This document shows, piece after piece, positions 1 to 20,238 of a stretch of DNA of 64,000 nucleotides. Every line of letters starts with the position of its first letter. The stretch's first letter is position 1. Position numbers and translations under genes: made by a program. The notes below the pieces were generated by a model. It searched no databases. It was not told the origin of the DNA and saw only the letters and a program-made list of their open reading frames with translations. This DNA comes from a virus: the IMG/VR virus record IMGVR_UViG_3300047550_001767, positions 24,674 through 88,673 of that record. One strand, 5' to 3'.

Positions 1-346
1 CACCGCCTCGTATTAGATTTAAGTGTTTTTGAAACTGAAAACTAATACACATTAGTGTACCCGGTATGTATCCGTTCTCTTTCCAATACACTGCTGCGTC
101 AACAATATTAGTGTTGTTTAAATAATAATAATTTTCCCATAGTTCATCAGTCCAAACATAGGGTATTCCTAATTTTGTAAATGTCATAGGTATGCTTGGA
201 TACGTATGGCGAGGACAGCCTGTAGTTTGAGGTTTTATAAGTCTTAAACATAATTCTACCGCATGTGTACAACAATCTGTTGCTACTGCATATGGCGCAT
301 TAAAATATCCTGCAATTAATTTTTCAAAATCATGAACCGGCTTCAT
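1..346 (-). CDS. DegT/DnrJ/EryC1/StrS-family PLP-dependent sugar aminotransferase (5' part; runs off window edge)
   Basis: Not in ORF track. Manual translation from ATG at 346: MKPVHDFEKLIAGYFNAPYAVATDCCTHAVELCL...NIVDAA...CISFQFQKHLNLIRGG. It has the FE...A.Y....AVA..T.A start, the DAA motif and the SF...K PLP-lysine motif. Overlaps the end of the upstream radical SAM gene. Confidence 0.85.
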   Translation of the reverse strand, partial: MKPVHDFEKLIAGYFNAPYAVATDCCTHAVELCLRLIKPQTTGCPRHTYPSIPMTFTKLGIPYVWTDELWENYYYLNNTNIVDAAVYWKENGYIPGTLMCISFQFQKHLNLIRGG

Positions 347-3762: not shown

Positions 3763-4971
3763 TTAAGGATTTAATTTTTTTTTTCTGGTGTCGCCGTAAT
3801 GAATAATTTCAGCATTACATTGATCTTTTTCTAGTTTGCGCCAAGGATCAACTACTGTTACATAACTAGGTAGTGAGCCAATAAGTCCCTGAGTCCATTT
3901 ATCCCAGTATCCTATAAGATATACATTTGCCCACTGTGGGTCAAGTTCTAGATCATTTGTATTTTGATCATAATATCTTACTTGTCCGCCGTGTTTTTCA
4001 ATGTAGTGTCCGACAAGCATACTTGCGCTACCATTAGTATAAGGCACTGCAGGCTTATATGCCTTACCAATTATAACAACTCTTGTTCCGTACTTTAAAC
4101 ATGCCAAAGCCATGCGCTCTGCTTGTTTCTCTCTTGCTGTCATAATAGCATCAAATAAATCATAACCTAAATCAAGACGCTCTGCAAGATAGCGCAATGC
4201 TATATTGTCACGTGGATGACAAGCGCCGGCGTCTCCTAAGGCTGCCTTCATGTATGCAGGGCCCATAATTCGATGTGTTGATTTTGCTAATGCATTTGTT
4301 ACAACATCAACATTCATGTTGCCGTTAGTCTCAGCAACATCTTGTATCATATTAACTAATGCTAACTTTGTGCTTATAAATGTATTATAGAAAATCTTAA
4401 TTGCCTCTGCTTCATCCCAGGTACCTACTTCATAACGAGGGTTATTTTCCATAAACGGTTTATAAAACTCTATCAATTCTTGTGCATCACCGGTAAGGCT
4501 ACCATCTTCAGTACCAATAATTACCATTTCAGGATTTACCATATCCCATTTTACAGTACCCATAGCGATCAAATATGGATTATAAATGAATCTAGCATTG
4601 GTTATATGTTGCACTAAATGATTTCTAACTGTGCCAGGTAAAACTGTAGAAATTAGTACTACCAATTTTTCTTTAGTGGCATACTTATTAACTTCTTTCA
4701 ATATTTCTACTACAGTACTATAATCAAAATCTTTATTGGGTAAGTGACTAGTAGGAGTCTCTCCGCCATAAATCGGGTCATGTGGAGTAGGGGCGGCAAT
4801 GAATATAATATCGCCGTGGCCTACTGCTTCTTCTATGCTTTTACACATGCCGAATCTAGGTTCAACTACAGGATTAACATCGTATCCCATAACGATATAA
4901 TGTTCAGACATGACTTGGGCACAATCTTTACCCAACTTACCTACACCAATCATTGTTACTCTTTTAATCAT
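3763..4971 (-). CDS. ugd: UDP-glucose/GDP-mannose 6-dehydrogenase family protein
   Basis: GVGKLG Rossmann motif, FIAAPTP, STVLPGT, EAIKIFYNTF, catalytic GACHPRD, AYKP. Confidence 0.9.
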   Translation of the reverse strand: MIKRVTMIGVGKLGKDCAQVMSEHYIVMGYDVNPVVEPRFGMCKSIEEAVGHGDIIFIAAPTPHDPIYGGETPTSHLPNKDFDYSTVVEILKEVNKYATKEKLVVLISTVLPGTVRNHLVQHITNARFIYNPYLIAMGTVKWDMVNPEMVIIGTEDGSLTGDAQELIEFYKPFMENNPRYEVGTWDEAEAIKIFYNTFISTKLALVNMIQDVAETNGNMNVDVVTNALAKSTHRIMGPAYMKAALGDAGACHPRDNIALRYLAERLDLGYDLFDAIMTAREKQAERMALACLKYGTRVVIIGKAYKPAVPYTNGSASMLVGHYIEKHGGQVRYYDQNTNDLELDPQWANVYLIGYWDKWTQGLIGSLPSYVTVVDPWRKLEKDQCNAEIIHYGDTRKKKLNP

Positions 4972-5016: not shown

Positions 5017-5865
5017 TTAAATTAAATGTAAATTATGAAAATAATTACTATTACTTTCTACTATATTATTAAACCATTTTTCAATTACTGTCCTTTCTTT
5101 TAAATCTAAAAGTTCAGTATTATACTGTAGGACTTTCTCTGCGTTTTTGTCTGAAATATTGAATCCTAAATTTTTTAAATATTCCATATACATTTTTGGA
5201 TTAGGATGATAATCTTGGAATGGCGTTTTCCATGAGGAATATGATATAGATGTCCAGTGATATTGATGCCCATTTATCCAACCGCCCTTGCCGTCTTTAA
5301 CAAATTCATATAGACAATTTGGCATGTCAAATATCACATCTCTATATAAATCAACTACATCATCTAATCCTACATCTCCTGTATAATATCTTATGTCATA
5401 TATAGGATCGACTGCTTTTAAAACAACTGCGTGACATGGTAAATATCGTAACGAATTCATCGTGGTAGACATTAAACCTAAATCTCTAATAATATAACCG
5501 CGTACACAAGTATATTTTTTAATAAATTCTTTAGAATAAAAATCTTGTGTCCAAATGTTTCCAGGAGTTTGCCAACCGTTTTCAATATAACGATCTTCTC
5601 TGCTAAACGTGCTCCACATAATCAGTACTAAATCTTTGTCTGTAAATCTATACTTTTGATTAGCACTTGATATACGCTCAGTAATATAGAGATTGCCTGC
5701 CCCCGAACTACCAAAATTGTATATTAATGTATCCTCATTTGTCTCCATAGATAGAATATTTGCCCAAGTAGGCCAAGTATAGTGTGTAAAACTACAACCA
5801 AAAATGAACACGCGGCTATAAGATTTAAAATCTATGTCTTTATAATTCCTAAAGTCTAAAATCAT
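5017..5865 (-). CDS. SGNH/GDSL hydrolase-like protein (putative acyl esterase/transferase)
   Basis: Block I FGCSFT, block II NFGSSGAGN, C-terminal DYHP. Confidence 0.6.
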   Translation of the reverse strand: MILDFRNYKDIDFKSYSRVFIFGCSFTHYTWPTWANILSMETNEDTLIYNFGSSGAGNLYITERISSANQKYRFTDKDLVLIMWSTFSREDRYIENGWQTPGNIWTQDFYSKEFIKKYTCVRGYIIRDLGLMSTTMNSLRYLPCHAVVLKAVDPIYDIRYYTGDVGLDDVVDLYRDVIFDMPNCLYEFVKDGKGGWINGHQYHWTSISYSSWKTPFQDYHPNPKMYMEYLKNLGFNISDKNAEKVLQYNTELLDLKERTVIEKWFNNIVESNSNYFHNLHLI

Positions 5866-7100
5866 AAAAGTTTTCTCACAAAGTTCTTATGGAGTAATTC
5901 GCATTTAGGATCATCTCCCCTTAAAAATGGGGCAGTCTTACTAATAATCATTTTTTGATTGTGTTCACAAATAGGTTTTACATTGTCTATAAAAGTTTGT
6001 ATCTCGTCATTATTGTAATTGCAAATTTTTTCGATCTCTTTAATTATTTTTTTAAGTCTTTCACAATCATCAAATTCATTATCGTAACTTTCATCTATAT
6101 AAGGATGAAACGTTTTATATCCTATTTCTCGTAATAATTCTAAACTTTTCGGTACGGTAACAAATATAAAAGGGTGACCTACGGCGATAGGTTTGAATAT
6201 CTTTTCACTTAGAAATCTTGCCTCATTCATTCCTTCCCCATGATAAAATGTAGTTTCAGTAACTACACTTACTAAACTATTAAGGTATAGATAAAGACTT
6301 TTGCCTTCTAGATGCGGTTTATTTTCTACTAATTCATCAGTATCTAGATAAAGTTCTGGCATATTTAATATGCTTTGCTCATTGTCGGTTAAGAGTTTAG
6401 AAATTTCTGCATCTTTACTATGATGTCCTTTAATCCACCACCAAATATCATTCCATCCTCGACAATCATCACTACGTGCTAAACTTACATATCCTTGTGG
6501 AAGCAAATTTTTAGCATGTAATAATGCGACTAATGTAGGCCTGTGTAGGCGCCATCTACGATTAAAATTCAAGAATCGTTTCGGGTATGGTTGATATGTT
6601 AATACTTTGCTATAATCAACACTTATTTGTTGCGCTTCTATGCTTATTGATTCTTCAAACTCCAATAACCATTCTACGTTCATATACTCAAAATTATTTT
6701 CATCAGCATATTTTTTAACTGCTTTACCTAAATCTGCTGCTTCATTTGCTATGTAAATTTTATGAGCTGGAATACCGGCATCAACAACTAATGATTGATA
6801 AAGGGGTTCAACTATGTCTAAAAAAGCCTCATGTGTATTTGCCAAATACAAATATGTTCTACTATCTGTTTTTATTTTATCCAAAATAACTTCAGGCATT
6901 ACAGAGTCTATAGGAAAGACATCAAATGCGTCACCGTGAAAAAATTCAATATACCAGTAATCTTTATCATCCCAAGTTCTTAACAACCATATTAAACAAC
7001 CGTCGGCCTCATGACGTATCCAGTTATCATTTTCATTACCAGTTCTAGAGGTATGTAAATATTTAAAGCCCAATTTATATTGTTTATTGAGTAAAGCCAT
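5862..7100 (-). CDS. GT10-like/GT-B glycosyltransferase-like protein
   Basis: FLNFNRRWRLHR, SVVTET...FLSEKIFKP...HPFI...GYKTFHPYIDESYDNE (16 aa identical to 2579..3730). Confidence 0.55.
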   Translation of the reverse strand: MALLNKQYKLGFKYLHTSRTGNENDNWIRHEADGCLIWLLRTWDDKDYWYIEFFHGDAFDVFPIDSVMPEVILDKIKTDSRTYLYLANTHEAFLDIVEPLYQSLVVDAGIPAHKIYIANEAADLGKAVKKYADENNFEYMNVEWLLEFEESISIEAQQISVDYSKVLTYQPYPKRFLNFNRRWRLHRPTLVALLHAKNLLPQGYVSLARSDDCRGWNDIWWWIKGHHSKDAEISKLLTDNEQSILNMPELYLDTDELVENKPHLEGKSLYLYLNSLVSVVTETTFYHGEGMNEARFLSEKIFKPIAVGHPFIFVTVPKSLELLREIGYKTFHPYIDESYDNEFDDCERLKKIIKEIEKICNYNNDEIQTFIDNVKPICEHNQKMIISKTAPFLRGDDPKCELLHKNFVRKLL

Positions 7101-7103
7101 ATA

Positions 7104-7814
7104 TTAAAAATTAATTTCTACCATTTTTCCCGGTTTGTAATTGTCTATGCATTCAATTATAGCATTCGCTAATAACTTATGCATTTTAAGTGATAAATGG
7201 CATTCTCTAGTTTCATTTGATAAATTTTGAGGCCACTCGTCCTTTCTGCTCAAAAGCATTAAAGGAGGTCTTACTTCTGCACAATTTTCAAAACGATGAA
7301 AGTATTTAATATCTTTAAAGTTCACTGAATCATAAATTTCCCATTTATTAAGTGGTACCTGCGAGAAAACATGTAAGTTAATAAATTTTACTGATGGAAA
7401 ATCAAGAACCATATGATCATACATGTTCATTAGTGCAGACATTTCAATATCTGGTTTTTCAGTAAGGGCAAAGTGTTTATAATAGTTGATTGCGGCTTTA
7501 TACACAGGGTTGTTAATATCTGTTGTATCGGTAACTTTTCTATTTGCTATGCTCTCATTTAAAACAGGCATAAAATTATTGTATAATCTATTAATATCAG
7601 ACCAAACAAATATAACAACATCTGGCACAGATTCATTTTTCATGTAATCAAGAAAATTAAAAAATGCTGACCACGGACCAGTTCCGCTCACCCCTCTGAA
7701 ATCGACATCAGCATTATACTTTGATCTTAGAATACCTTCATAGACCTGTGGTATTAAAGGATTACCCTGTTGTAATCTTAATATAAAACTATCTCCAAAA
7801 CCTACAATTTTCAT
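7104..7814 (-). CDS. SGNH/GDSL hydrolase-like protein
   Basis: MKIVGFGDSF block I, GVSGTG block II, C-terminal ETRECHL. Tandem paralogue of 7811..8584. Confidence 0.6.
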   Translation of the reverse strand: MKIVGFGDSFILRLQQGNPLIPQVYEGILRSKYNADVDFRGVSGTGPWSAFFNFLDYMKNESVPDVVIFVWSDINRLYNNFMPVLNESIANRKVTDTTDINNPVYKAAINYYKHFALTEKPDIEMSALMNMYDHMVLDFPSVKFINLHVFSQVPLNKWEIYDSVNFKDIKYFHRFENCAEVRPPLMLLSRKDEWPQNLSNETRECHLSLKMHKLLANAIIECIDNYKPGKMVEINF

Positions 7815-8584
7815 TTTGTCACTAATTTGGTTAAATAAGGTTTATCCATCTTATAGGATTCTATTTCTACTAATAAACCAGGTTCATACTTATCTATACA
7901 ATTTATAATTGCTTCGGCTACAATTATATGCATAGCCTCTGTTAAATGGCAAGTCCGCGTTTCTAAATGCATTTTGTTACCGCCGGGCCAACCATCTCTG
8001 CGACTCATCCACATTAATGCTGGTCTAACCTCTGCACAATTTATAAATCTATGATGATAGTCTAATTGTTTTGGTCCTAGTTTATCATAGTGATCCCACC
8101 ATTGAAAACGCTTTAAATAAGAAAAGTTATGTAAATTAATAAATTTTATGTTAGGATAATTAAAGACAAATTTATCAAAATACATCATTAAAGAACGCAA
8201 TTCATAATTTTCTTTTTTATGATCCGCTATATATAATCCATAATCTAAAGCTGCCTGGTAAATTTCTGAATTAATATGGTTTTCTTGTATTTTATTCTTG
8301 CAGGTACCCCGTGTAGTATCAAGGATGTTAGGATGATATAAGGATCTGCACGCCTCACTCCAGCCGAATAAAACAACATCAGGTAGAACCTCTGCTTCTT
8401 TAAGGTAGTTTCTGCACTTTATAAACGCATGCCATGGACCAGAACCAGGATCGCCATAAAATTCTACGTTAGTTTCGTCAGCCTTATAATTTTTTAATAA
8501 TAAGCCCTGATAACATGCAAATTCATAACTCGATAAATTGTGAACATCATGTTGAAAACTATCCCCGAAAGCAACTATTTTCAT
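7811..8584 (-). CDS. SGNH/GDSL hydrolase-like protein
   Basis: MKIVAFGDSF, GDPGSG, C-terminal ETRTCHL. Shares RF.NCAEVRP.LM..SR.D.WP with its neighbour. Confidence 0.6.
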   Translation of the reverse strand: MKIVAFGDSFQHDVHNLSSYEFACYQGLLLKNYKADETNVEFYGDPGSGPWHAFIKCRNYLKEAEVLPDVVLFGWSEACRSLYHPNILDTTRGTCKNKIQENHINSEIYQAALDYGLYIADHKKENYELRSLMMYFDKFVFNYPNIKFINLHNFSYLKRFQWWDHYDKLGPKQLDYHHRFINCAEVRPALMWMSRRDGWPGGNKMHLETRTCHLTEAMHIIVAEAIINCIDKYEPGLLVEIESYKMDKPYLTKLVTK

Positions 8585-9837
8585 TCAAATACCCAAAATT
8601 CTTTCATATATGGTAAATAATCAAATATCTTTCTGTTTCTATATTTATCCAGTGGTTCAACAAAATCACGCATCCTGCGCCAATGAGCGAGACGTATTTT
8701 TTCATCTACCTTAGCCTTTAACACATTTGTTCTAATATTTTCAATAGCAGGTAACCACTTATCTTCAAGGTTAACTGTTTTTAAATAATTTTGTAGATCA
8801 TCCAACATGATTGCTGTTTTATTTTTTAATTCTATTGGAGCATAAGCAGGATTAAAATAACTAGGATTGTTTACGCATTGTACGTGCGGCAACGATTTTA
8901 ATATTCCGCATCCTTCATCAGCAACCTGTGTTTCCCACCATTTAACAATATCACCAAATGTTAATAGATTCAATGATGTTACTGTATGACTTAAATTAAT
9001 ATAATAATCGCCGTTTTGTTTAGCAATATTTTTTATACTATCTAATTGACTAGTTACTTTTTTCCATGTAAAGGGATATCGTATGTATTCGTTTACTTTT
9101 CCTACACCATCAATACTGACTGTTATGTGTTTAGTGCTAAATTGACTCCACAGTTCTAGCATCTCATCACTTATACCTGTTAAATTAGTAACAAATCCCA
9201 ATGTAATATCTTTGCTACGTCCTTGTTCTATTAACCTTTTTAACAGATAGGTAACAGCATCATTGATTGTAGGCTCGCCGCCCGCAAACTGCACTGCTTT
9301 TAAGTTAGTCAACTTATCTAATATTGGTGCAATATTTTCTTCTTTAAACCAATTTAAGTTTGGATGATTCCATACAAACCCTGTAATATCTTCTTGCTCT
9401 TTAGCCCATAGTGAACTGGCTGAACTATTGCACATCAAACATGCACTATTACACTTGTTCCCTGTAGTAACATCTAATAAAAAGATTTTACTAAAGTCTG
9501 TAACTTCAGGATTATCTACACGCCAACTTTGTCCGGTTTTTTCTTCCACACCAGCAAGCGTGTGATTAAAGATTTGTCTTGTGCTTGCTTGTCCAACATC
9601 TTCACGTATCTTACATAAATTACATATAGGATTCCATTTGCCTTCTAACATGTCTTTACGTAATTTAACCATGTTTTCATTGTTAAACCATGTAGGCAAA
9701 TGATTTCTATAATCTGCTAATTGATGGTCTGTTTCACGCCAAAAATATGTATCAACAGCGCAGCAAGGTCTGCTTCCGCCATGTGGGCCAAAACTTACTG
9801 AGTTAAATGCTAATGAGCAATATAAATCTTTAGGCAT
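8581..9837 (-). CDS. Radical SAM protein with N-terminal twitch (SPASM-like) domain
   Basis: N-terminal C...PCC...CNLC, core GNKCNSACLMC, AGGEP, SIDG...YIRY. Confidence 0.88.
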   Translation of the reverse strand: MPKDLYCSLAFNSVSFGPHGGSRPCCAVDTYFWRETDHQLADYRNHLPTWFNNENMVKLRKDMLEGKWNPICNLCKIREDVGQASTRQIFNHTLAGVEEKTGQSWRVDNPEVTDFSKIFLLDVTTGNKCNSACLMCNSSASSLWAKEQEDITGFVWNHPNLNWFKEENIAPILDKLTNLKAVQFAGGEPTINDAVTYLLKRLIEQGRSKDITLGFVTNLTGISDEMLELWSQFSTKHITVSIDGVGKVNEYIRYPFTWKKVTSQLDSIKNIAKQNGDYYINLSHTVTSLNLLTFGDIVKWWETQVADEGCGILKSLPHVQCVNNPSYFNPAYAPIELKNKTAIMLDDLQNYLKTVNLEDKWLPAIENIRTNVLKAKVDEKIRLAHWRRMRDFVEPLDKYRNRKIFDYLPYMKEFWVFE

Positions 9838-10816
9838 TTTGTTTTACCGGTGCACGTTTACTTATTATAATGTCAGTGCCGCAAGTACATTGCATTTTTT
9901 TACAGATGACTGGACGTGACATAAGTTGTATATCTTCATATATATTGCCTAATATGGGGCCCTGTCCACAACTCGCTGCTGTAGTATGTCCGGCACTGTT
10001 AATAAACAACGCTTCATCTACATTACATTCCCAACCAGTAAAGAAGTTTCTGCGTTCTGCGACTATACGGTTTCCGTTTAAGGGTTGTTCTAATCCAGAT
10101 TCATAAACTTCTTTACTAGCGCACTGCCACTTACTGCCTTGTGGTTTGTCTATTGTAGTTTTACTTTCAAAGGTATGAGTTTTGAAAAATTCATGCATCC
10201 AAGGTTCGCTATAGTCCCATGGTGCAACATTAATATCAATATCGCTAAACAATGGTACCCATTCTAGGTTATAGTTTTGTAATGTTGATTTTACTTTTTC
10301 GCCAAATTCCATAACTTCTCTAAATCTATCTTCTTGCATCATCATGCGACTACAGAGATAATTTACTTTATCCTGCAAAAATATTAGATTGTCAAGGTAT
10401 CTGTCACGATTAGCAAAGTCAATATGAAAACTTGCTACTACATCGTGAAACAAATGATAATGCTCTTTCCACCATTGCGTACTACGGCTTAAATTAGTAT
10501 TGATACCAATATGAGGATCATCAATACGTTCTTTCAACCATTTAATTAGAGGTATCAAAAATGGCCAAACAGTTGGTTCGCCACCACTGAAATAAAACTT
10601 ATAACCCTTCGTACCCTTACGTTCAAACTGTGTGATAATTTTATCTAAGTTAAATTTAATTCTATCAAAATCTTCTGGTTTTCCATGTTTAGGGCCTAAT
10701 CCTGCCCAATTACCCGGATTGCAGTACTTACATTTAAAGTTACAAAAATCATTAACCTGCCAAGTGATATTGACATATGGATGATACATTGGTTTAATTT
10801 CAATTAACTTATCCAT
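9830..10816 (-). CDS. Radical SAM protein with C-terminal twitch/SPASM-like Cys cluster
   Basis: CNFKCKYC, SGGEP, NTN, C-terminal WEC...ASC...ICKKMQCTC. Confidence 0.88.
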   Translation of the reverse strand: MDKLIEIKPMYHPYVNITWQVNDFCNFKCKYCNPGNWAGLGPKHGKPEDFDRIKFNLDKIITQFERKGTKGYKFYFSGGEPTVWPFLIPLIKWLKERIDDPHIGINTNLSRSTQWWKEHYHLFHDVVASFHIDFANRDRYLDNLIFLQDKVNYLCSRMMMQEDRFREVMEFGEKVKSTLQNYNLEWVPLFSDIDINVAPWDYSEPWMHEFFKTHTFESKTTIDKPQGSKWQCASKEVYESGLEQPLNGNRIVAERRNFFTGWECNVDEALFINSAGHTTAASCGQGPILGNIYEDIQLMSRPVICKKMQCTCGTDIIISKRAPVKQNA

Positions 10817-12191
10817 GTTTTGCTCTATAACCGTCTAAAAATTTCTTATAATTTTTAAATTGATTACTATAAGTTTCGTTATAAGGAATATTGATAATTG
10901 AATTTTCTAGTGCAGCCATTGTGTCTTTGTTCACAGTAAAATATTTTAAACCACTATCATGCTGTCTTGCCTTTTCTCTAATTCTAGGTATACACTTCAT
11001 ACGATCCTCATTTGGTATTGATGCTAAACCCAAATATAAAGGATATGATAATGTAATAGGCCACCATTCAACACGCTTCTGATATTGCTCTGCTTCTTTT
11101 GCTAGCAAATCCCATATTTCTGTAACATACTGATAATTTAAGGCCTGTAAAACCGTGTAGCAAAGTATACGCCAGTTAGGACGAGTACTCGCCATTTCAA
11201 ATACTTTCTTAATATTTTCACGCACTACGTCCCACTTAGTACCATAGCGTATGTATTCTGCTACACCACCAATACCGTCAATACTCATCTGTATTTCAAC
11301 GTTATCAAAATTACTTAAAGCCTCATAGAATTTTGGATTCCATGTTGTCATATTGGTCGTAAATTCAATCTTACAGTTTCTATTTCCTGCTGCAATTAAT
11401 TCTTCAAACATCTTATAGTTTGCTTTAATAAGTGTTGGCTCGCCTCCCGTCGTGTATAGGCGTCGCAATTTAGGTGCCATACGTCTAAAGTTTTTATAAA
11501 ACATTTCTGTTTCATACCATTCAGTAATTTCGCTTTTTTCTACAAGATCGTAATCATCTTGCCACTTATCCTGTAACCAATCTAGTTTTTGTTCTTTTAG
11601 CACGCCTGATTTTAAAATCTCTTTACGCTCATCTTGAATAAGTGAACTACTCATGCCCCAACATGTTATACATTTTAAATTACATTGATTGCCCAAACGT
11701 AACTCAAGGCTTAAAGGTAGCATGTCTAACACGCTATACATCTTTTTGTTTATACCATCATATTCTGTAATACTGTTTAAATGATTTGATAATTCATTAT
11801 CATTTTCTTGTCTTATCAACCACATTTTATTTTGTCCTTTTCTAGGACTGTGGCCACTTACTTTTTCCATTTTATAACAATCTAAACAATCTCCAGATCC
11901 ATTATTTTGTCTATGTAGATCACGCACGTTTTGCATATGATCTGAATTCCAGATTGTGTCGATATCATCATATCCTAAATTAAAAGGCTTTGCAGGTTTA
12001 CCATAACCTACAAAATAATCCATAGCGATACTACAACATAATTTGACATTACCGTTTGGATTCGTATTAAGATTGAGCCATGGCAGTACACAAAACTTCT
12101 TCATGTTTCCTGCTAGCCAATTAATTTTTTTATCGCTTGGTACGTCTTCAGGAACTTTAGGTACAGCGTGAACTACCCAATTTAAATCCAT
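10809..12191 (-). CDS. Radical SAM protein with N-terminal twitch domain
   Basis: FCVLPW...LCC...CLDC, GNQCNLKCITC, TGGEP, TTN, SIDG...YIRY. Confidence 0.88.
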   Translation of the reverse strand: MDLNWVVHAVPKVPEDVPSDKKINWLAGNMKKFCVLPWLNLNTNPNGNVKLCCSIAMDYFVGYGKPAKPFNLGYDDIDTIWNSDHMQNVRDLHRQNNGSGDCLDCYKMEKVSGHSPRKGQNKMWLIRQENDNELSNHLNSITEYDGINKKMYSVLDMLPLSLELRLGNQCNLKCITCWGMSSSLIQDERKEILKSGVLKEQKLDWLQDKWQDDYDLVEKSEITEWYETEMFYKNFRRMAPKLRRLYTTGGEPTLIKANYKMFEELIAAGNRNCKIEFTTNMTTWNPKFYEALSNFDNVEIQMSIDGIGGVAEYIRYGTKWDVVRENIKKVFEMASTRPNWRILCYTVLQALNYQYVTEIWDLLAKEAEQYQKRVEWWPITLSYPLYLGLASIPNEDRMKCIPRIREKARQHDSGLKYFTVNKDTMAALENSIINIPYNETYSNQFKNYKKFLDGYRAKHG

Positions 12192-13393
12192 AGTGGTTTT
12201 AACTCCGGAAATGTTATTGTTAAATTTTCATTTCTTAAATTGTCGATTGTAGTTATCACTGCCTTAAATTCAGGAATCAATTCTCTATGATCTGCGCTAT
12301 CCATATAATCTAGTATACCCTTTACGGCGTGTATTGTTTGTGGCCAAGCATTATTATCAGTTAACCACTGTATATACTTTTCATATAATTTGTGTACTTC
12401 CTTTTTTTGCTCTGGGGTTAACATTGTAATACTAAAGTAACGCGGATGTGTTAATATGTTAACACGAATGTTATTGATATTCAAGAGTCCTTCTTCGACC
12501 CAAGTTCTGTGAAAATCAAAAAGGCTATATACACTGAATATACTTACTGTGGGGGTTATTTCAAAATAAACATCTGGGCAACTTTCAATCATCTGTCTAC
12601 GATTCTTTACAATACGATCCCAGTCTGTGCCTTTACGACTATATTCTGCACGATCTCCATATGTATCTAAACTTGCTGCGACACGTACATCCTTAAACAT
12701 TTTCCAATAATCTAATATTGACTTCTCTTTTAATTTTAAGGCACTAAAGTTAGTAGTATAACGTAGACGTACATCTGTTCTGCCCTTTTCTAACCAATAG
12801 TCTAATACTTGGTAGTGTTGCGGTGTGATTAATGCTTCGCCACCAGCAAAGTAAACTTCTTCAACATAATCTAAATGCTGTTTTAAATCATCCATAAAAA
12901 ATGGATTATTCTTTAAATCAATAAACTTAGATTTGGACCAAGTGGGGAACATCTTTACTTGATCGTCGTACCAACTGCTACTTAAATCAGGGCCGCACGT
13001 TCTACAGCGCATGTTGCATAAATTACTAAAACGTATATCCATATAATACATTTTGTAATCATTTATACTACCATCGTCATTTGTCTTGTCAAACAAATCC
13101 ATATGATTACTAAAACTTTCTAAACTATTTTTTCTTAATGTCCAACTATCTGCGCTTGTCTCTAATTCGTAACAACGCATACATGCTTTTGGTTTTTCGC
13201 CATTTAGCATTTGTCTGCGCAGTTCTTTAAATTTTTCATTATTGATTAATTTGTTAATATCTTCCTTATAGACATTACCAAATACCTCGCTACTATCGCT
13301 CATACAGCAAGGAAATGTATTTCCATTTGGCCATATATGCATATGCATCCAAGGCATTAAACATACAACATTTTTATCTATTGATTTACTCAT
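12182..13393 (-). CDS. Radical SAM protein with N-terminal twitch domain
   Basis: VCLMPW...PCC...CMRC, SNLCNMRCRTC, AGGE, TTN, SLD. Confidence 0.88.
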   Translation of the reverse strand: MSKSIDKNVVCLMPWMHMHIWPNGNTFPCCMSDSSEVFGNVYKEDINKLINNEKFKELRRQMLNGEKPKACMRCYELETSADSWTLRKNSLESFSNHMDLFDKTNDDGSINDYKMYYMDIRFSNLCNMRCRTCGPDLSSSWYDDQVKMFPTWSKSKFIDLKNNPFFMDDLKQHLDYVEEVYFAGGEALITPQHYQVLDYWLEKGRTDVRLRYTTNFSALKLKEKSILDYWKMFKDVRVAASLDTYGDRAEYSRKGTDWDRIVKNRRQMIESCPDVYFEITPTVSIFSVYSLFDFHRTWVEEGLLNINNIRVNILTHPRYFSITMLTPEQKKEVHKLYEKYIQWLTDNNAWPQTIHAVKGILDYMDSADHRELIPEFKAVITTIDNLRNENLTITFPELKPLWI

Positions 13394-14625
13394 GTTATTA
13401 ATTCTTCTAGTTCCGGAAATACATTTGCAAATTGTTCTTCACGTAAATTATCTAAATGTGATGTTTCCTTCTGAAATTGCTCTTTATGTCTTTCCCAAGT
13501 GTTATCTGCTAAAACCCATTTTTTAGCATCAACTAATGGCTGTACATGATGTGGTTTAAACCCCATCATTTTCATACGTGTAATCACAGTTTCAATACCT
13601 TCTATCCCCTGTATTTTAAGATGTACAGGTAATGCCAATGCTGCTATATGTTCAGGGCTTATCATGTTGTAAATGGTGTTTGATCTATCTTCAGGGGTAT
13701 AAAAATTCTTATTTAAGAGATAATGATAGAAAGTACTAAAGGTAACAAAGTTAAAAATGCTTAATACACTGTTTATTTGTGTAGCAACATAGGGAACACT
13801 TTTTACTTTTTTAAAGTTTTCTTCAATTTGTTTCCAGTCTGTGCCTTTGCGCATGTATTCTGCTCTTGATCCATAATGATCTAGGCTAGCATAAACTTCT
13901 ATCTTTTTAGTAAAGTGACTCCACAAATCTAATAGGTCTTTATTTTTAAATTTTAAATTACTCAAGTTAGTATTATATCTTAATCTAACATCAGTACGTC
14001 CCTGACGTATCATTTCTTCAAGCATAATATAATGTTCTTCTGTAATTAATGGTTCTCCGCCTGCAAAATATGCCATTGTTATATGTGGAATCTGTTGTAG
14101 TACATCATCTACATATTTGCTACGGTTATCTTTATCAATTGTTATAATTGTTCGACCTTGCTTTGCATCTTCATTTTCCCATTGACTACTATAATGACTA
14201 TTACAAGTTCTACATTTCATATTACATATATTGCTTAAACGCAAATCAAAATAGCGCATTTTAAATTTGCCTATTTCTCCTGTAATATCGGTCGATGCTA
14301 ATGCTTCGTCAAAAAATTGACCAAACATCTGTTCTTCGTTCATATTATTTCTAAAACTATAAATGCCTTGTTCTTCATGTCTATGACAGGCTTTACAAAT
14401 AGGATTTTTTATACCTTCTAGCATATCTCTACGCAATTCTTTCATTGCTTCGCTATTCACTAATTCTATTAGTGATTTTTCGTTTGCGTTTCCTACAGGA
14501 TATAATTGATTACCAATGCAACAAGGAGTGCCTACACCAACAGGAGTAACATGCATACTAACCCAGGGAAGCATACAAAAACTTCCGTTTTTAGTTAATA
14601 ACTCTTCTTCTGGTGTATACTTCAT
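13390..14625 (-). CDS. Radical SAM protein with N-terminal twitch domain
   Basis: FCMLPW...PCC...CKAC, SNICNMKCRTC, AGGEP, NTN, SLD. Closest paralogue of 12182..13393 (shared GRTDVRLRY, RKGTDW). Confidence 0.88.
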   Translation of the reverse strand: MKYTPEEELLTKNGSFCMLPWVSMHVTPVGVGTPCCIGNQLYPVGNANEKSLIELVNSEAMKELRRDMLEGIKNPICKACHRHEEQGIYSFRNNMNEEQMFGQFFDEALASTDITGEIGKFKMRYFDLRLSNICNMKCRTCNSHYSSQWENEDAKQGRTIITIDKDNRSKYVDDVLQQIPHITMAYFAGGEPLITEEHYIMLEEMIRQGRTDVRLRYNTNLSNLKFKNKDLLDLWSHFTKKIEVYASLDHYGSRAEYMRKGTDWKQIEENFKKVKSVPYVATQINSVLSIFNFVTFSTFYHYLLNKNFYTPEDRSNTIYNMISPEHIAALALPVHLKIQGIEGIETVITRMKMMGFKPHHVQPLVDAKKWVLADNTWERHKEQFQKETSHLDNLREEQFANVFPELEELIT

Positions 14626-16025
14626 TGCAATGGATTCAATCTATTTGTTTCTTGGCAAATTCTATAAAAATTTAAAAGTTCAGGAAATATTTCAAGCATA
14701 TTTGTGTCTCTGCGCTCATCCAACTCATTGAACCAATTATAGAAATCTCTACGTCCTTCTATTAATTTATCTTCATCATATTGAGTTTCACGCATATAAT
14801 CAACCACACGTTTAAACTTTTCATATTCAATCGTGCTAAATTTTTTGCTTGACTTATCATCTACATTTTCTTTCATAAAATCTAATGCTTCTTCCATAAA
14901 AGGCATAAACTCGCCTTTGGGTAAAATATTCATGTCATACTGGAGTGGCTCACGTAGATAAGGAGTATCAAATCTTACGCGGTGTTGTGGGTTGATGGGG
15001 TCATCATACCAATCATACATATTACGCCACTCCAATATTTTTTGTAGTAATAATTTAAAAGATGTTACACTAAACAAATTAAATGTAATCATAAAGGTTA
15101 CAGGACTGTTTGTGATACTCAAATATGTGTGCAAGTTTTTTTCCCATAATTCTATATCAAGGCCTGTACGATTATATTCTGCTCTTGGGCCCCAAGTATC
15201 GATACTTGAGAAAAGTTTAAATGCTCTAATTTTCCCTTCGTCACTTAACTTTCTAACCGCCTTACTCATTTTTTCTACAAGTGCAGTCTTTGTACCTAAA
15301 TTGCTATTAATGTTAAGTTCAAGCCAGGGCATAGGATCTTTATCAATTTCATCAAGCACTTGATATGTACTTCTATGCATAGTAGGCTCACCACCAGTTA
15401 TACGCATGATGTTTAATGTCTTGCGTAACTCAGGCCACCATTTCCAGAACGCATCAACGTAAGGGTTTTCTTCTTCACGCTGATATAGTTTCATCCAGTC
15501 AATATCACAGCGGTGATTTTTTACGCTTGTGACAGGACCATGTTCTTTGATTTCTTGATAGAAACGTGTTGAATATTTTGGATGACAGTACCCGCATTTG
15601 AAGTTACATTCATTACCGAAATTAATTTCAAGGTATTCTGGATTAATATTTTGTTCGTGACTACCCTTAGCACATTGATTAAAACGTTCATCTGTAAAAA
15701 TACTTGCATTTCTAATGTGGCGGTCGCTTACGTAATCAGGACCCATATCCTCTACGTTCCAACAATATTGACAGCCAGAAGGACGTTTGCCCTCTAACAT
15801 CATTTTTCGTTCTTCTTTTTTCTCTTTAGTATTGTGTAATGCTGACGGATTGTCTACTAATTCCTCTAGTGGAATCTTATGAGGGCGGGGGTGATAGCAA
15901 CTATGTGTCTCACCCGATTGTAAGTACATAGTGACATGATGCCACTTTGCTAAACAAAAAGTTGACGTTGCTTGATTTTCAACTACTACTTTTATTTCTT
16001 TAATTCTGTCAATCTCATAACTCAT
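14622..16025 (-). CDS. Radical SAM protein with N-terminal twitch-like domain
   Basis: FCLAKW...HSCYH...GCQYC, GNECNFKCGYC, TGGEP, NSN, SID. Confidence 0.88.
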   Translation of the reverse strand: MSYEIDRIKEIKVVVENQATSTFCLAKWHHVTMYLQSGETHSCYHPRPHKIPLEELVDNPSALHNTKEKKEERKMMLEGKRPSGCQYCWNVEDMGPDYVSDRHIRNASIFTDERFNQCAKGSHEQNINPEYLEINFGNECNFKCGYCHPKYSTRFYQEIKEHGPVTSVKNHRCDIDWMKLYQREEENPYVDAFWKWWPELRKTLNIMRITGGEPTMHRSTYQVLDEIDKDPMPWLELNINSNLGTKTALVEKMSKAVRKLSDEGKIRAFKLFSSIDTWGPRAEYNRTGLDIELWEKNLHTYLSITNSPVTFMITFNLFSVTSFKLLLQKILEWRNMYDWYDDPINPQHRVRFDTPYLREPLQYDMNILPKGEFMPFMEEALDFMKENVDDKSSKKFSTIEYEKFKRVVDYMRETQYDEDKLIEGRRDFYNWFNELDERRDTNMLEIFPELLNFYRICQETNRLNPLQ

Positions 16026-16981
16026 TACCAGCCCTCTATTTTTCTTATGACATCCATTTCTTTTACTAATGGGCCTAAGTTATGTTTGTCGGAGTTATAG
16101 TGTCGTTTAAAAAACTTACTTTGTTCTGCATCAAGTGTGCATATAGGTAAATCTAATTTATTCTGTAAAATATCGCCCAATCGGTCACTTTCGGTAACCG
16201 GACGCATATGCTTAAAAATACCATCCCACATTTTTTGTAAGTTGTCGAACCACATTACATTTTTATGATCCCAAATTGTCAACATAGTCATGTAAGTACC
16301 AAGACGTGCGCCATATATAGCCCAATCTCCGTTCTCTACATCCATGCCAACATTATGCCATATAGTTAAATTATTGAGGTTACGTGATGCTACTCTTGTT
16401 TTAAATTCGTCAACTGTTGGTCTAGCGCCGGCGTCTAAACACATTTTAACTCCCTCACGAAATCCTGCACGCCATGCTTGAAATGGTGTACCATTGGGGT
16501 AAGTAGTACTATAACAATCGTACATAGCCCAATAAAGATTGTCTGCACTATCCATACAAAAATCTACTTGTGTGGCCGAACTACCGTCTGTATGTTCATG
16601 TGTACGCATGTTAAACACATATTCTTTTGTCCAACTGCTCATGCCACCGTTGCCGTAACGTAATCCATTAATATTATTTGTAGCCTTCCAGCGAAACTGT
16701 GCTTTTTTATAAATTGGATCAAGACCAGTAAAGTCAAGTTGAATATTGAAAAAATCAGGTGTAGGTAAATTGTCGCCGTCAATTAATATAAAACGATCAG
16801 TCTCACTTGCTTCTGCTGCTGCTTTATGTGCGGCATCACTACCCTTTACGCCATCAACACGTTTAGCATATGGGCATAATTCATTTTTTATTTTATGCCA
16901 AAAATGTTCTTTTTGTGGCTCATCATAACTTAGATATATGCAATCTAAGTCAACAACATCTACTATGTCATCCCAACTCAT
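16025..16981 (-). CDS. GT-A fold glycosyltransferase-like protein
   Basis: N-terminal IYLSYDEP, AHKAAA...FILIDGDN (DxD), YGNGG, AWRAGFRE. Confidence 0.65.
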   Translation of the reverse strand: MSWDDIVDVVDLDCIYLSYDEPQKEHFWHKIKNELCPYAKRVDGVKGSDAAHKAAAEASETDRFILIDGDNLPTPDFFNIQLDFTGLDPIYKKAQFRWKATNNINGLRYGNGGMSSWTKEYVFNMRTHEHTDGSSATQVDFCMDSADNLYWAMYDCYSTTYPNGTPFQAWRAGFREGVKMCLDAGARPTVDEFKTRVASRNLNNLTIWHNVGMDVENGDWAIYGARLGTYMTMLTIWDHKNVMWFDNLQKMWDGIFKHMRPVTESDRLGDILQNKLDLPICTLDAEQSKFFKRHYNSDKHNLGPLVKEMDVIRKIEGW

Positions 16982-17321
16982 ATGTTATTAACACCCATTG
17001 GGTAATTTCAATACTACCATCATCAACTATAATACTAATATCTTCTTTAGCACATTTATTGCCTAAAAGACTGTCTGGTTGTAACTTGCTTATAATTGCA
17101 GAAGGATTTACTGTTGATAAGCGACCGTTGATAACTCTAACATCAGGGCGAGCTGTAGCAAAAGTAATAGCATCAATAACTATGTATTTGCCTTCAGGTT
17201 TCTCGCAGGTATAAAATAATACTTTACCGTTTTCTTCTTCGTAATATAAACGAAATTCGGGAGCCTCAATTTTAGGTGCCTCAAACAATAAGACATAATC
17301 TTCTGTTTCATCTTGATTCAT
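16968..17321 (-). CDS. Hypothetical protein (117 aa) in glycosyltransferase operon
   Basis: ORF overlaps both neighbours; no recognisable motif. Confidence 0.75.
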   Translation of the reverse strand: MNQDETEDYVLLFEAPKIEAPEFRLYYEEENGKVLFYTCEKPEGKYIVIDAITFATARPDVRVINGRLSTVNPSAIISKLQPDSLLGNKCAKEDISIIVDDGSIEITQWVLITYELG

Positions 17322-18112
17322 ATAGACTTCTCTATTTCATAGGCAAATTTTTTCACATGATAGTGAAAAGGATACATTTGCGGTACGGTATTTATACGTA
17401 AAGTATGAGGTAATATTTCATAAATTAAAACGTCTGTCCAATCTTCACTAGGCGTGCCATTAATATGTTGCTTCATGTGCACCATAGACATTTCTGGATA
17501 ATTAGGTAATGTTGTATGTTCTATTCCTATGATGTGCGCTGCTATCGCATATGCCCAGTCAGTAGTAACAGGCTCAGTAGGACTGCATTTAAGCATAGCA
17601 CGAAATTCAGGCCAGTTTTCAAAAACCATTCTAACGATTTTAAAAAATGTTTCAGCAACATTACTTTTCTTAAAGTATGTTATAGCGTTATAAACATTAG
17701 GTAGTTTATTATCTTCAATAAACCGACGATAAAATTTCTGTTTACTAATTTCTTGCTTAAAATCTCTTATGTGTGTGCTTACCACTAAATCTTTATGCTT
17801 TAAAATATCCCACCAAGGTTCTATTGATTTTGGCAAATACAAATCTGCTTCAAGTTTAATAGTATATTCATAAGGACTTGCTTCATAAACTTGCCAGTCA
17901 TTGATAAGTTTCCAGTTACCGCCTTTATCCAAATCTCCATATGGCAAGGCTATCACGCTATCAAAATAACTTGCATCATCTACTTCATCACTAATTAAAG
18001 AAACTTTTGCGTCTGGCATATGTTTTTTAATACTATAAGCCAGCATTTCAGCACATTTAACATAGTTAACAAACTCTGTGTTTTGTGCTAAGATTACAAA
18101 TCCTTTATCCAT
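17318..18112 (-). CDS. GT-A (GT8-like) glycosyltransferase
   Basis: KGFVILA...Y...A..LA.SIK, FD.VI, SPYEYTIKLEADL (EAD in place of DxD), TDWAY, HMK. Confidence 0.65.
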   Translation of the reverse strand: MDKGFVILAQNTEFVNYVKCAEMLAYSIKKHMPDAKVSLISDEVDDASYFDSVIALPYGDLDKGGNWKLINDWQVYEASPYEYTIKLEADLYLPKSIEPWWDILKHKDLVVSTHIRDFKQEISKQKFYRRFIEDNKLPNVYNAITYFKKSNVAETFFKIVRMVFENWPEFRAMLKCSPTEPVTTDWAYAIAAHIIGIEHTTLPNYPEMSMVHMKQHINGTPSEDWTDVLIYEILPHTLRINTVPQMYPFHYHVKKFAYEIEKSI

Positions 18113-18932
18113 TTTTAATTAACTCCACATAAATGTCTTTATTCATTACGTGAAAATCCATATCTTTTATAGTAATAAATTCTTTTCTTATTTTACCACG
18201 CTGCCAATTGTCAAACAATACAGTATATTCTGTATTGTAAGGAGAGTTACTTGCTGCGATAACATTAGTATTTTTACCTACGTGCATTAAATTCCATGGT
18301 ATAATATCTTGAGGTGCTATAGTATGACCATTTACTATACGTAATGCTAAAGTTAATGCATAATCATTTCTAAAAATATTTGCTAAAAAGTGATGCATGT
18401 TTGCGTAGTGACCAAAATTATTTTGTATCATTTCAATACAATTGAAGATTTGTTCTGCACGTTCTGTTTTTTTAAAAGCAACTACTGTTGCCCATAATGT
18501 TTTATAACTGTATACACTTAATACTTCTTGCGGTAATCTAGGCTGCATGAAATACTCTGTGTTGTCATGGCAACAAAAATCATCGTACAAATCAAAACAT
18601 TTTAACAACTTGTCGCTATTAACAACATAATCAACATCAAGTAATAAAGTTTCTTTATAAGGACTTAATTTATAGGCTTGATATCTTCCTTTATTAATCC
18701 AAGGCGCGCCGTCTCTATTATTATTTTTATCTGCCGTGACTAATTTTACTTTATCAAATTTATAATCTGAAATGGCGCTATTTAAAGTCTCTTTATCAGT
18801 AACTAATGTAACTGGCAAATTTAAAAAATGATTTATACGCTGGGCAGTATGAACTGCCATGTCATAATAATTATACTTGGTATTGTTAAATGCAAAAAGT
18901 ATCGCACCGCGACTTTTCTTTCCGCGTTTCAT
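18105..18932 (-). CDS. GT-A (GT8-like) glycosyltransferase
   Basis: RGAILFA...Y..MA, FDKV, SPYKETLLLDVDY (DxD), RNDYA, DFHVMNK. Paralogous to 17318..18112. Confidence 0.7.
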   Translation of the reverse strand: MKRGKKSRGAILFAFNNTKYNYYDMAVHTAQRINHFLNLPVTLVTDKETLNSAISDYKFDKVKLVTADKNNNRDGAPWINKGRYQAYKLSPYKETLLLDVDYVVNSDKLLKCFDLYDDFCCHDNTEYFMQPRLPQEVLSVYSYKTLWATVVAFKKTERAEQIFNCIEMIQNNFGHYANMHHFLANIFRNDYALTLALRIVNGHTIAPQDIIPWNLMHVGKNTNVIAASNSPYNTEYTVLFDNWQRGKIRKEFITIKDMDFHVMNKDIYVELIKNG

Positions 18933-19234
18933 CTCTTTGCCTCTAACTCATTCCATTCTTTTAACCACTCAGTCATAGTCTGTTGATAAACAGATTTTAA
19001 TTTATGTAGTAAATCTTCTCTATTAATTTTAACGGGATTATTAAAGGTATCCATAACGACTATTTCATCGTCATCAAAAGAATTTAATAAAGTTATAGTT
19101 TGCTGATCTGCTTTCCATAAGCCACCTTGATCAGCCAAAGTTAGTCTACTATCATATTTTTCTTTTAAGTAGGCTTTCGCTGAATTGTGACTAAATCTAG
19201 CCTTTGATTCGGCTAATAAAGTTTTGACATCCAT
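18929..19234 (-). CDS. Small hypothetical protein, possibly tail-fibre-associated
   Basis: GGAG Shine-Dalgarno upstream. First gene of the coupled operon, directly after fibre-like genes. Function inferred only from position. Confidence 0.6.
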   Translation of the reverse strand: MDVKTLLAESKARFSHNSAKAYLKEKYDSRLTLADQGGLWKADQQTITLLNSFDDDEIVVMDTFNNPVKINREDLLHKLKSVYQQTMTEWLKEWNELEAKR

Positions 19235-19302: not shown

Positions 19303-20238
19303 TTATGCGCCTGTAACTGAACCAGCAAGTGTAATTGTACCCCAAGTGTTTGACAAATTAGTTGTCTCTGGAGCCTGTGCTGTTAGTGTAGTTGCAGAAC
19401 CAGTTGATACAGAATATCCATCTGGAACTTCGTCCCAAACTGTATATAGTGTTACTACTGAAGGTGAGGCGTTTGAATTTACTGCGCCTATTACACGAAT
19501 AAATGTGCTTTGATATGCTGCTGGACCTGTACTTGCTGTTTGTGTAAATAGGGTAGTATTTGCAGTAGTCAATGCATAGAAACCTGAATTAGTTGAAATA
19601 GTTGGTGTTGATCCACCACCGCCTACTTTAGTTACACCATTGTAAGATACTGATGCAACTGTAATTGATCCTGATACAGGAGCACTCAATACTACTGTGC
19701 CTACGTTACTTGCTAGGTTGTTGAACAATAAGTCTATGTTTACGCCTGCTGGGTGTGAACAAGTAATTTTTAATGAGCCACCTGCATTGAAGAAATAACG
19801 TGCGGCATCTGCGTTAGCAAATGTAGCAGTATGTGTAAATGTTAAAGCGGCACTCCACGCACCTGAACGTGTGGCAGTATTTGCTGTGGTGCTGCCTACT
19901 GTTTGTGCATTTAATCTATTTGTATAGATAGTTTGTAAATTAGTTGGTACTGCCGATACGTATGTTATAAGGCCGCCAGAAACAGGTGCTGAAACAGAAG
20001 TTATGCTTGAACCTTGGTGTGTAGCGGCGTTTGAGGTTCTGTTTACTAGATTAGCCCATGTTGTTGCGCTCACAGTATCGCCCACTGCAACGTTTGCCAA
20101 AGCAGTTTGACCATAACCTGCATTGCCGCTGCCTGTAGCCCAAGTCGCATTTAATGTATTTGCTGTTGTTGAGGTAGGACCGCCTGTAAGATTGTTATAA
20201 TCAGTTGCTTGGACTAATCCAAATTGTGCATAAGTCAT
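19303..20238 (-). CDS. Virion structural protein (tail/fibre-associated, Thr/Ala/Ser/Gly-rich)
   Basis: beta-rich composition with GYGQ and ARYFFNAGG motifs. Preceded by GATAAATA; lies in the tail module. Confidence 0.7.
   Translation of the reverse strand: MTYAQFGLVQATDYNNLTGGPTSTTANTLNATWATGSGNAGYGQTALANVAVGDTVSATTWANLVNRTSNAATHQGSSITSVSAPVSGGLITYVSAVPTNLQTIYTNRLNAQTVGSTTANTATRSGAWSAALTFTHTATFANADAARYFFNAGGSLKITCSHPAGVNIDLLFNNLASNVGTVVLSAPVSGSITVASVSYNGVTKVGGGGSTPTISTNSGFYALTTANTTLFTQTASTGPAAYQSTFIRVIGAVNSNASPSVVTLYTVWDEVPDGYSVSTGSATTLTAQAPETTNLSNTWGTITLAGSVTGA

Follow-up and report, generated by a model that had tools for sequence, protein, structure and literature searches.

Radical S-adenosylmethionine (SAM) enzymes carry out chemistry that is beyond ordinary enzymes. 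Some of them contain an auxiliary iron-sulfur domain known as twitch. The founding twitch enzyme is BtrN, the 2-deoxy-scyllo-inosamine dehydrogenase of butirosin biosynthesis (PDB 4m7s/4m7t), which has a carbohydrate-type substrate and whose auxiliary cluster accepts an electron. Here we describe an array of six radical SAM genes, R1 to R6, at positions 8581-16025 of a 64,000-nucleotide stretch of viral DNA. This stretch, which we will call the window, is bases 24674-88673 of an 88.7 kb IMG/VR record (IMGVR_UViG_3300047550_001767) that is estimated to be ~26% complete. Its genes, which include gp25, gp53, a T4 baseplate protein, and SbcCD-like genes, mark it as a fragment of a T4-like jumbo phage, an uncultured one from freshwater. 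In five of the six proteins, the twitch domain lies before the radical SAM core. Our leading interpretation, which we put forward tentatively, is that the array tailors, by radical chemistry, a glycan that is carried on virion fibers.

The closest described enzymes differ from the array in several ways. BtrN shares with the array a twitch segment that aligns cysteine for cysteine, but in BtrN the twitch follows the core, and the cores are only remotely alike. Also, BtrN (~250 amino acids) acts by itself, outside of any array with multiple paralogues. BlsE (a glucuronic-acid-nucleoside decarboxylase), DesII, and AprD4 make single-position radical edits to sugars, which is the type of chemistry that we propose for the array, but sequence identity in these matches is just 11-17% and none has an N-terminal twitch. 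The peptide enzymes anSME, CteB, SkfB, and SuiB have structural scores equal to those of the sugar enzymes, and they are a precedent for several clusters per enzyme. In peptide-modifying SPASM/twitch enzymes, the auxiliary domain is C-terminal, and there is usually an N-terminal recognition element (RRE) of the kind found with ribosome-made peptides that are modified after translation (RiPPs); for the array, we found neither an RRE nor an adjacent precursor. The domain order is matched by the NCBIfam family NF033640 ("N_Twi_rSAM, twitch domain-containing radical SAM protein"), which has, like the five array enzymes, an N-terminal four-cysteine twitch, a CxxxCxxC core, and a helical C-terminal region. 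A reading of the window from its sequence alone had called N-terminal-twitch radical SAM enzymes essentially uncharacterized. Our literature searches agree with this, as NCBIfam names the family and we came across no paper in which it is named or given a function. We also found nothing specific on expansions of the family in Bdellovibrio or on its arrays in jumbo phages.

Among phages, the host recognition clusters of pelagimyophages and cyanomyophages contain tail fibers, GT8 glycosyltransferases, UDP-glucose dehydrogenase, and "radical SAM cassettes" (PMC7029224). The cassettes are described there in one sentence, without family, copy number, order, or selection.

The six genes form an unbroken array, as the sequence-only reading had proposed. 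Each lies at the position given in Table 1 and overlaps its neighbors by 4-10 nt; the flanking genes are overlapped by 1 and 4 nt, and there is no intergenic gap in the gene block from 19234 to 5862. In an alignment of the six proteins, which are 17-35% identical to each other, both the CxxxCxxC motif (C126/C130/C133 in R4 numbering) and the GGE motif (184-186) are invariant, so the claim that they are intact in each gene holds. All six proteins match Radical_SAM (PF04055) in Pfam, with R6 under the gathering score at 23 bits. R1, R3, R4, R5, and R6 match NF033640 end to end (model positions ~2-398), at 266-398 bits; the curated cutoff is 170 bits. R4 is the nearest of the six to the family consensus. 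Judging by these scores, the five are members of NF033640 and R2 is not.

Several comparisons place the twitch at the N-terminus of these five proteins. Pfam puts SPASM (PF13186) there in three of them (R3, R4, and R5), and in the alignment, C-x16-17-C(C/Y)-x40-47-CxxC precedes the core in all five. A profile of R4-type proteins finds one solved protein by sequence, namely the C-terminal twitch segment of BtrN (E = 4.5e-6). BtrN residues 163-239 align to residues 6-79 at the N-terminus of the family, with four cysteines on four cysteines. From these alignments, the N-terminal placement that had been read from the sequence is correct, and the architecture is one that has already been catalogued.

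The array genes are maintained. Near-identical DNA to the window is found in 20 runs from 10 studies of freshwater, sediment, and reservoirs. Two runs that carry an RNA-Seq label are probably DNA. Megablast of the phage collection found no close DNA relatives of the window. We aligned contigs from four freshwater runs (from different studies) to the array and considered the best-supported 40 of 186 variant positions. Among these 40, 38 variants are synonymous and 2 are non-synonymous. Given 4.3 non-synonymous sites per synonymous site, this corresponds to a pN/pS (the ratio of the proportions of non-synonymous and synonymous differences) of ~0.012, which is far from the value near 1 of decaying duplicates. 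The sole indel among the strains is in-frame: at 14604, near the start of R5, all four environmental strains have six extra bases (two codons) relative to the window.

More distant comparisons agree. Three related viral contigs keep the array genes in identical order, and the orthologues of R5 and R1 are intact in two loci (L003 and L005). Between array genes and their orthologues, pN is 0.09-0.27 and pS is 0.74-0.90; because the synonymous sites are saturated, we report the raw values in place of Nei-Gojobori or YN00 estimates of dN/dS. R3 evolves the fastest: it is 58-65% identical to its orthologues, with pN of 0.23-0.27 as compared to pS of ~0.8. Among the best-supported strain variants, R3 has 15 that are synonymous and 1 that is non-synonymous. 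Given the 38:2 ratio, the lack of any indel that is out of frame, and the low pN of the orthologues, the six genes are under strong purifying selection, as the sequence-only reading had expected.

The array is not an invention or a peculiarity of this virus. We scanned viral contigs with an alignment of R4-type proteins, and at least 565 matching stretches encode relatives. The 81 phage loci discussed below comprise 80 of these stretches together with close relatives, and N-twitch genes were counted within ±10 kb. Bacterial genomes were scanned with the family alignment; a single-protein query matched nothing. R4 has orthologues of 47% identity in metagenome-assembled genomes (MAGs) of Bacteriovoracaceae, and R6 has orthologues of 40% identity in Bdellovibrionota. 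At least one member of the family is present in 31 of the 151 Bdellovibrionota genomes that we sampled. One Bdellovibrionia genome has ~24 copies over the cutoff, with ~14 of them inside 30 kb. Multi-copy clusters are a habit of the NF033640 family.

We built a tree of 65 members of the family. In it, R6 lies inside a clade with bacterial sequences that has 100% support, R4 groups with bacterial R4-like proteins, and R1 and R3 are on separate long branches. A single clade of the 15 phage sequences was rejected by the approximately unbiased (AU) test (the log likelihood dropped by 364; p-AU = 3e-53), as computed with a quick tree and for a group that was named after the tree was seen. Because phage monophyly is rejected, recent duplication within phages is ruled out, and by this phylogeny the array is a collection of ancient subfamilies that bacteria have as well. 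Identity is 17-35% among the paralogues but 40-47% to bacterial orthologues, and the order of the subfamilies is kept across phages; these observations suggest that the six enzymes have distinct roles instead of redundant ones. By sequence similarity, the R4, R2, and R6 types make up a core trio that is common to phages and Bdellovibrionota.

The short enzyme, R2, probably has a more conventional architecture. The cysteine cluster of R2 had been read as C-terminal. This fits with an alignment of R2 orthologues, which has five invariant C-terminal cysteines. An AlphaFold model of R2 (with a predicted local distance difference test score, or pLDDT, of 81) aligns colinearly, over residues 12 to ~318-327, with BlsE, SkfB, anSME, and BtrN, and the top structural match is BlsE (Z = 12.4). 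Pfam found no SPASM domain in R2, and a comparison of its C-terminus to the N-twitch profile with hhalign was not significant (E = 0.076). The model suggests that R2 is a radical SAM core followed by a conventional C-terminal auxiliary domain of the twitch/SPASM type. Orthologues of R2 (41-43% identity) directly adjoin R4-like genes in 11 bacterial loci, and R2-type genes are present in 31 of the 81 phage loci. R2 is a conserved companion of the N-twitch family. The predicted complex of R4 with R2 scored 0.00, which speaks neither for nor against binding. A hetero-oligomeric complex of the array enzymes is compatible with any of the substrates considered below.

In a Bdellovibrionia MAG (L020:14295-15397, on G005:C1), an R2-type gene is split into a 250-amino-acid open reading frame (ORF) for the core and an abutting ORF of 118 amino acids, which holds only the cysteine-rich C-terminal domain. 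It is possible that the 118-amino-acid ORF encodes a twitch on its own, a form that could plausibly lie midway in a domain permutation, or the split could be due to a frameshift or an assembly error.

The array sits in a conserved phage cassette. Five N-twitch copies per locus is the commonest number (30 of the 81 phage loci), followed by four (25 loci). R6-type genes are present in 66 loci and are usually first in the array. The window's order of subfamilies, or subsets of it, recurs among phages, beside a second type of composition. Five N-twitch genes with an R2-type companion is a typical configuration. Around the array, distant phages keep a fixed order: a fiber-like gene, a Thr-rich protein, a 101-amino-acid protein, two GT8-like genes, a 117-amino-acid protein, the gene of the 16025..16981 type, the radical SAM array, and further enzymes. 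Many aquatic T4-like and jumbo phages carry this cassette inside the tail-fiber ("host recognition") region.

Table 1. Radical SAM genes and other features of the window.
Feature	Position	Strand	Evidence
R6: N-terminal-twitch radical SAM, 467 aa, first in array	14622..16025	-	NF033640 312 bits
R5: N-terminal-twitch radical SAM, 411 aa	13390..14625	-	NF033640 349 bits; Pfam SPASM at residues 17-81
R4: N-terminal-twitch radical SAM, 403 aa	12182..13393	-	NF033640 398 bits; Pfam SPASM at residues 11-75
R3: N-terminal-twitch radical SAM, 460 aa	10809..12191	-	NF033640 266 bits; Pfam SPASM at residues 34-106
R2: short radical SAM, 328 aa, no N-terminal twitch	9830..10816	-	NF033640 48 bits, core only
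R1: N-terminal-twitch radical SAM, 418 aa, last in array	8581..9837	-	NF033640 278 bits
Fiber-like protein with C-terminal intramolecular-chaperone (Peptidase_G2/IMC) domain	20277..21206	-	Pfam PF11962, E = 2e-7
311-aa Thr/Ala/Ser/Gly/Asn-rich protein, 18% Thr	19303..20238	-	Composition; no Pfam match
Conserved 101-aa protein without Cys	18929..19234	-	Family in 52/81 loci
Two paralogous GT8-type (glycogenin-like) glycosyltransferases	17318..18112, 18105..18932	-	Profile match to glycogenin
Conserved 318-aa partner directly upstream of array	16025..16981	-	Family in 62-64/81 loci, always just before array
Two paralogous phage-only proteins directly downstream of array, both starting MKIV.FGDSF	7104..7814, 7811..8584	-	
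Non-radical-SAM family most tightly linked to array	5862..7100; second copy 2579..3730	-	Family in 65/81 loci
UDP-glucose/GDP-mannose dehydrogenase family enzyme	3763..4971	-	PF00984 (E = 5e-15) and PF03721 (E = 2e-14), both above cutoffs
Cobalamin-dependent (class B) radical SAM, 748 aa	330..2576	-	Pfam B12-binding and Radical_SAM
Radical SAM with weak C-terminal SPASM, unrelated to array	58634..59647		Pfam

The fiber-like protein with the chaperone domain heads the cassette, and its family is found in 39 of the 81 loci. The 311-amino-acid protein, whose family is in 49 loci at a fixed position, is a candidate for the carrier of the modification. The 101-amino-acid protein is also fixed in position, with the Thr-rich protein on one side and the GT8 pair on the other. 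The profile of the GT8 family matches glycogenin-1/2 over the N-terminal 115 residues (E = 2e-5), and the family is in 59 loci. GT8 is the only transferase label among the array's neighbors that we could verify, in this case by profile comparison. The dehydrogenase family is near arrays in 12 loci.

We propose that the six genes are a non-redundant set of radical SAM tailoring enzymes, which would form the catalytic block of the fiber-region cassette. In each enzyme, the cluster bound by CxxxCxxC would cleave SAM, so that one specific hydrogen is abstracted from a defined carbon, and the twitch [4Fe-4S] cluster would accept the electron or pass it on, as happens in BtrN. Overall, each enzyme would carry out an oxidation, epimerization, deoxygenation, or decarboxylation at a given position. 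The substrate would be a sugar or oligosaccharide that is built by the co-conserved GT8-type transferases and the nucleotide-sugar enzymes. The carrier would be the Thr/Ser-rich 311-amino-acid protein and/or the fiber with the chaperone domain, and the enzymes would yield a virion glycan tailored by radical chemistry. We infer the chemistry by analogy to the established twitch enzyme BtrN and to the sugar enzymes BlsE, DesII, and AprD4.

We infer the sugar substrate and the virion target from the cassette. A fiber glycan seems the likeliest substrate because the GT8 pair, the nucleotide-sugar dehydrogenase, and a DegT fragment co-occur with the array, because the Thr/Ser-rich protein is present, and because the gene block joins the fiber genes without a gap. 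The sequence-only reading had suggested a glycan or virion residues as the target; this setting is strengthened by a cassette with fiber-like genes and the GT8 pair in most of the 81 loci. In mycobacteriophages, where to our knowledge no radical SAM enzymes are involved, Freeman et al. reportedly found in 2023 that glycosyltransferases encoded next to the structural genes of a phage decorate its virion proteins. The cassette has the same trait, with the GT8 pair directly after the fiber-like genes, in fixed order, in 59 of the 81 loci. A sugar substrate is also supported by BtrN, since the sole solved relative of the twitch by sequence is a carbohydrate dehydrogenase, and by BlsE, since it is the top structural match of the models of both R4 and R2, though it is tied with peptide enzymes. 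In the case of R4 (AF2 model, pLDDT of 85), the matches cover the core only: BlsE has Z = 11.7, anSME has 11.5, and CteB has 11.2. DesII and AprD4 also appear among the matches.

Several observations weigh against a fiber glycan. First, most of the characterized SPASM/twitch enzymes act on peptides or proteins. Second, BlsE, anSME, CteB, SkfB, and MoaA are within ~1 Z of each other, so sugar enzymes and peptide enzymes cannot be told apart by the structural scores; Foldseek and VIA-align, run with the R4 and R2 models, returned generic radical SAM cores only and no discriminating relative. Third, none of the phage cassette partners was found beside the bacterial arrays, even with profile hidden Markov models that recover 59-65 of the phage loci. 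The flanks of the bacterial arrays are varied instead, and include PrkA, a pseudouridine synthase, a HAD hydrolase, ABC transporters, and 2-oxoglutarate (2OG)/Asp-Asn hydroxylase-like genes. Because the bacterial radical SAM modules adjoin unrelated genes, a linkage with sugar genes does not hold throughout. Finally, profile searches did not show that the proteins of the 16025..16981 type or the 5862..7100 type are glycosyltransferases.

Given that peptides are the usual substrates of the characterized SPASM/twitch enzymes, the array might instead modify virion fiber proteins directly, in a RiPP-like manner. Each paralogue would have its own sites, and the products would be epimerized residues, cross-links, or oxidized side chains. 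The candidate substrates would be the Thr/Ser-rich 311-amino-acid protein, the fiber with the chaperone domain, and a 6569-amino-acid protein that is encoded at window positions 22016-41725, directly upstream of the cassette. The Thr/Ser-rich protein, as well as the 101- and 117-amino-acid proteins, are co-conserved with the array, and the peptide enzymes CteB, SkfB, anSME, SuiB, and EpeE tie with the sugar enzymes in fold searches. There is also a precedent for a whole protein as the substrate of a radical SAM enzyme, as CrpC acts on CrpA (PMC13692751); CrpC belongs to a different family from the array enzymes. Nevertheless, we consider direct modification of proteins to be unlikely. The Pfam and NCBIfam matches of the six enzymes include no PqqD/RRE recognition domain, and the twitch takes up the N-terminus, where such a domain would be expected. 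Beside the bacterial arrays, no short precursor ORF is conserved, and those loci also lack the candidate substrates. Furthermore, the array is conserved together with genes for a nucleotide-sugar dehydrogenase and GT8. The Thr/Ser-rich, 101-amino-acid, and 117-amino-acid proteins are separated from the phage array by the transferase genes.

The small conserved ORFs that we considered as precursor peptides by the bacterial arrays were rejected, as they are antisense shadows of the radical SAM genes.

A quite unlikely alternative, in our view, is that the sugar chemistry is as we propose but that its target is the host envelope (the O-chain of lipopolysaccharide or the capsule), which would block superinfection or the re-adsorption of progeny to lysed cells. 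This is how the glycosyltransferases of pelagimyophage host recognition clusters have been interpreted, namely as modifying the host O-chain (Zaragoza-Solas et al. 2020, PMC7029224). Also, GT8 is typically a lipopolysaccharide family, the radical SAM cluster of Vibrio phage K566 is near a gene whose annotation is PagP (a protein of lipid A acylation), and an envelope target would explain why bacterial radical SAM modules lack the phage partners. However, the cassette directly follows the fiber-like genes, in a fixed order and in the same gap-free block, which fits better with a virion product than with an early role in converting the host. We did not detect a flippase, polymerase, or exporter in the window, and GT8 enzymes of the glycogenin type prime proteins.

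An improbable reading is that the product stays unbound to the virion and is a small, diffusible molecule, made or edited by the array, that would act on competitors or within the infected cell; an aminocyclitol, a compound resembling aminoglycosides, and a modified nucleotide-sugar are examples. The twitch domain is nearest to that of BtrN, from butirosin biosynthesis, and the same gene block contains the DegT-type fragment and the B12 radical SAM. A trio of aminotransferase, radical SAM, and inosamine amidinotransferase genes from cyanophages was termed "antibiotic synthesis genes" (PMC12801897). Also, the bacterial arrays are found alone or beside ABC transporters. But the neighbor labeled "amidinotransferase" has no Pfam match, we found no cyclitol synthase or kinase, and the strict synteny with fiber genes across phages would be left unexplained.

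The tandem arrangement and the common family are all that speaks for a recent origin of the six genes in the phage as tandem duplicates, either redundant or decaying. This reading is refuted to near certainty by the 38 synonymous versus 2 non-synonymous strain variants, by the intact and syntenic state of all six genes in relatives with saturated synonymous sites, and by the rejection of phage monophyly (p = 3e-53).

Returning to the tailoring of a fiber glycan, a broader form of this proposal is possible but rather doubtful. The array could be the core of a widespread and undescribed phage system that builds a heavily radical-edited glycan, or residues modified directly by radicals, on host-recognition fibers, with one C-H edit per ancient subfamily. 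Such a system would tune adsorption or shield the fibers against the defenses of the host, and the same enzymes would serve an envelope or secreted product in the predatory Bdellovibrionota. If a glycan or protein edit on fibers is confirmed, it would add a new level to phage-host specificity, make up a new class of post-translational modification of virions, and offer sugar or protein chemistry that is new. It would also explain why a phage bears the cost of eight iron-sulfur enzymes in 64 kb. (Pfam domains confirm the two further iron-sulfur radical enzymes that had been proposed, at 330..2576 and 58634..59647.)

Regardless of the substrate, many uncultured phages carry a family of radical SAM enzymes with inverted domain order, and in predatory bacteria its copies run to dozens. 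New in this analysis are the evidence that five N-twitch genes with an R2-type companion is a typical arrangement in phages, the fixed order of the cassette with its candidate carriers, the verified GT8 identity of one partner family, the R4/R2/R6 core in common with Bdellovibrionota, the population-level evidence of selection, and the formal rejection of a phage-specific origin. The system is testable, given the cultured phages, the defined cassette, and the core trio that is shared with bacteria.

The cultured phages with members of the family are Vibrio phages K566 and K567 and Ralstonia phage RsoM2USA. In K566 (L026; positions 161548-170335 of the record), there is a cluster of about seven genes of 350-420 amino acids that are annotated as radical SAM or "hypothetical." Two of these are above the NF033640 cutoff and three are just below it. 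The genes annotated as PagP and as nicotinamide phosphoribosyltransferase lie a few genes away from the cluster.

In the bacteria, an Oligoflexia MAG (G006) has two N-twitch arrays in one genome (L024 on contig C21 and L025 on contig C10). Each array adjoins its own set of ABC-2 transporter, ABC_transp_aux (GldG-like), and DUF4340 genes, which hints at an exported product in bacteria. In another island (G005), Asp/Asn beta-hydroxylase-like genes (PF05118; L021:4370-5173 and L021:7215-7958) lie among ~14 N-twitch genes, along with several proteins that match no family.

For other partners of the phage array, searches with single sequences and with profiles, and Pfam scans of member after member, gave no verified label. 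The 16025..16981 protein has no match in Pfam or the PDB, even with a profile of 29 members. Its neighbors in the Atlas are phage clusters, and one of these was automatically named "Glycosyltransferase 2-like," which is unconfirmed and which we treat as a lead only. The downstream pair (7104..7814 and 7811..8584) has no match in Pfam, PHROG, or the PDB, so the label "SGNH-like" is unconfirmed, and its Atlas neighbors are phage hypothetical proteins only. The profile of 5862..7100 found 1363 relatives in a search of 5.8 billion proteins, all of them without Pfam domains or names. It has no significant match in the PDB or Pfam, so the label "GT10-like" is also unconfirmed.

The family of the B12 radical SAM is found in 24 of the 81 phage loci, and a homolog of 27% identity lies beside a bacterial array (L007). 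At window positions 1-2576 and L002:3458-4800, the B12 radical SAM and a short DegT-type aminotransferase fragment (25 bits in Pfam) adjoin a 323-amino-acid protein, which has no Pfam match. The radical SAM gene at 58634-59647 sits between genes for an SbcC-like ATPase and a PDDEXK endonuclease, which is a DNA-metabolism setting and not the fiber cassette.

In related phages, the host-recognition cluster is marked by a giant structural gene of the VrlC type, to which the ORF for the 6569-amino-acid protein may correspond. Another long ORF (2709 amino acids; L001:11241-19370) lies in the same orientation upstream of the window, in the same virus record. Scans of the window for sigma-70 promoters and terminators gave hits at chance level only. 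The T4 late-promoter box, TATAAATA, is rarer in the window than expected by chance (7 found versus 16 expected), and none of the 7 directly precedes the array. Three of the 7 (at 52718, 61729, and 61743) lie in the two divergent intergenic regions, as real late promoters would.

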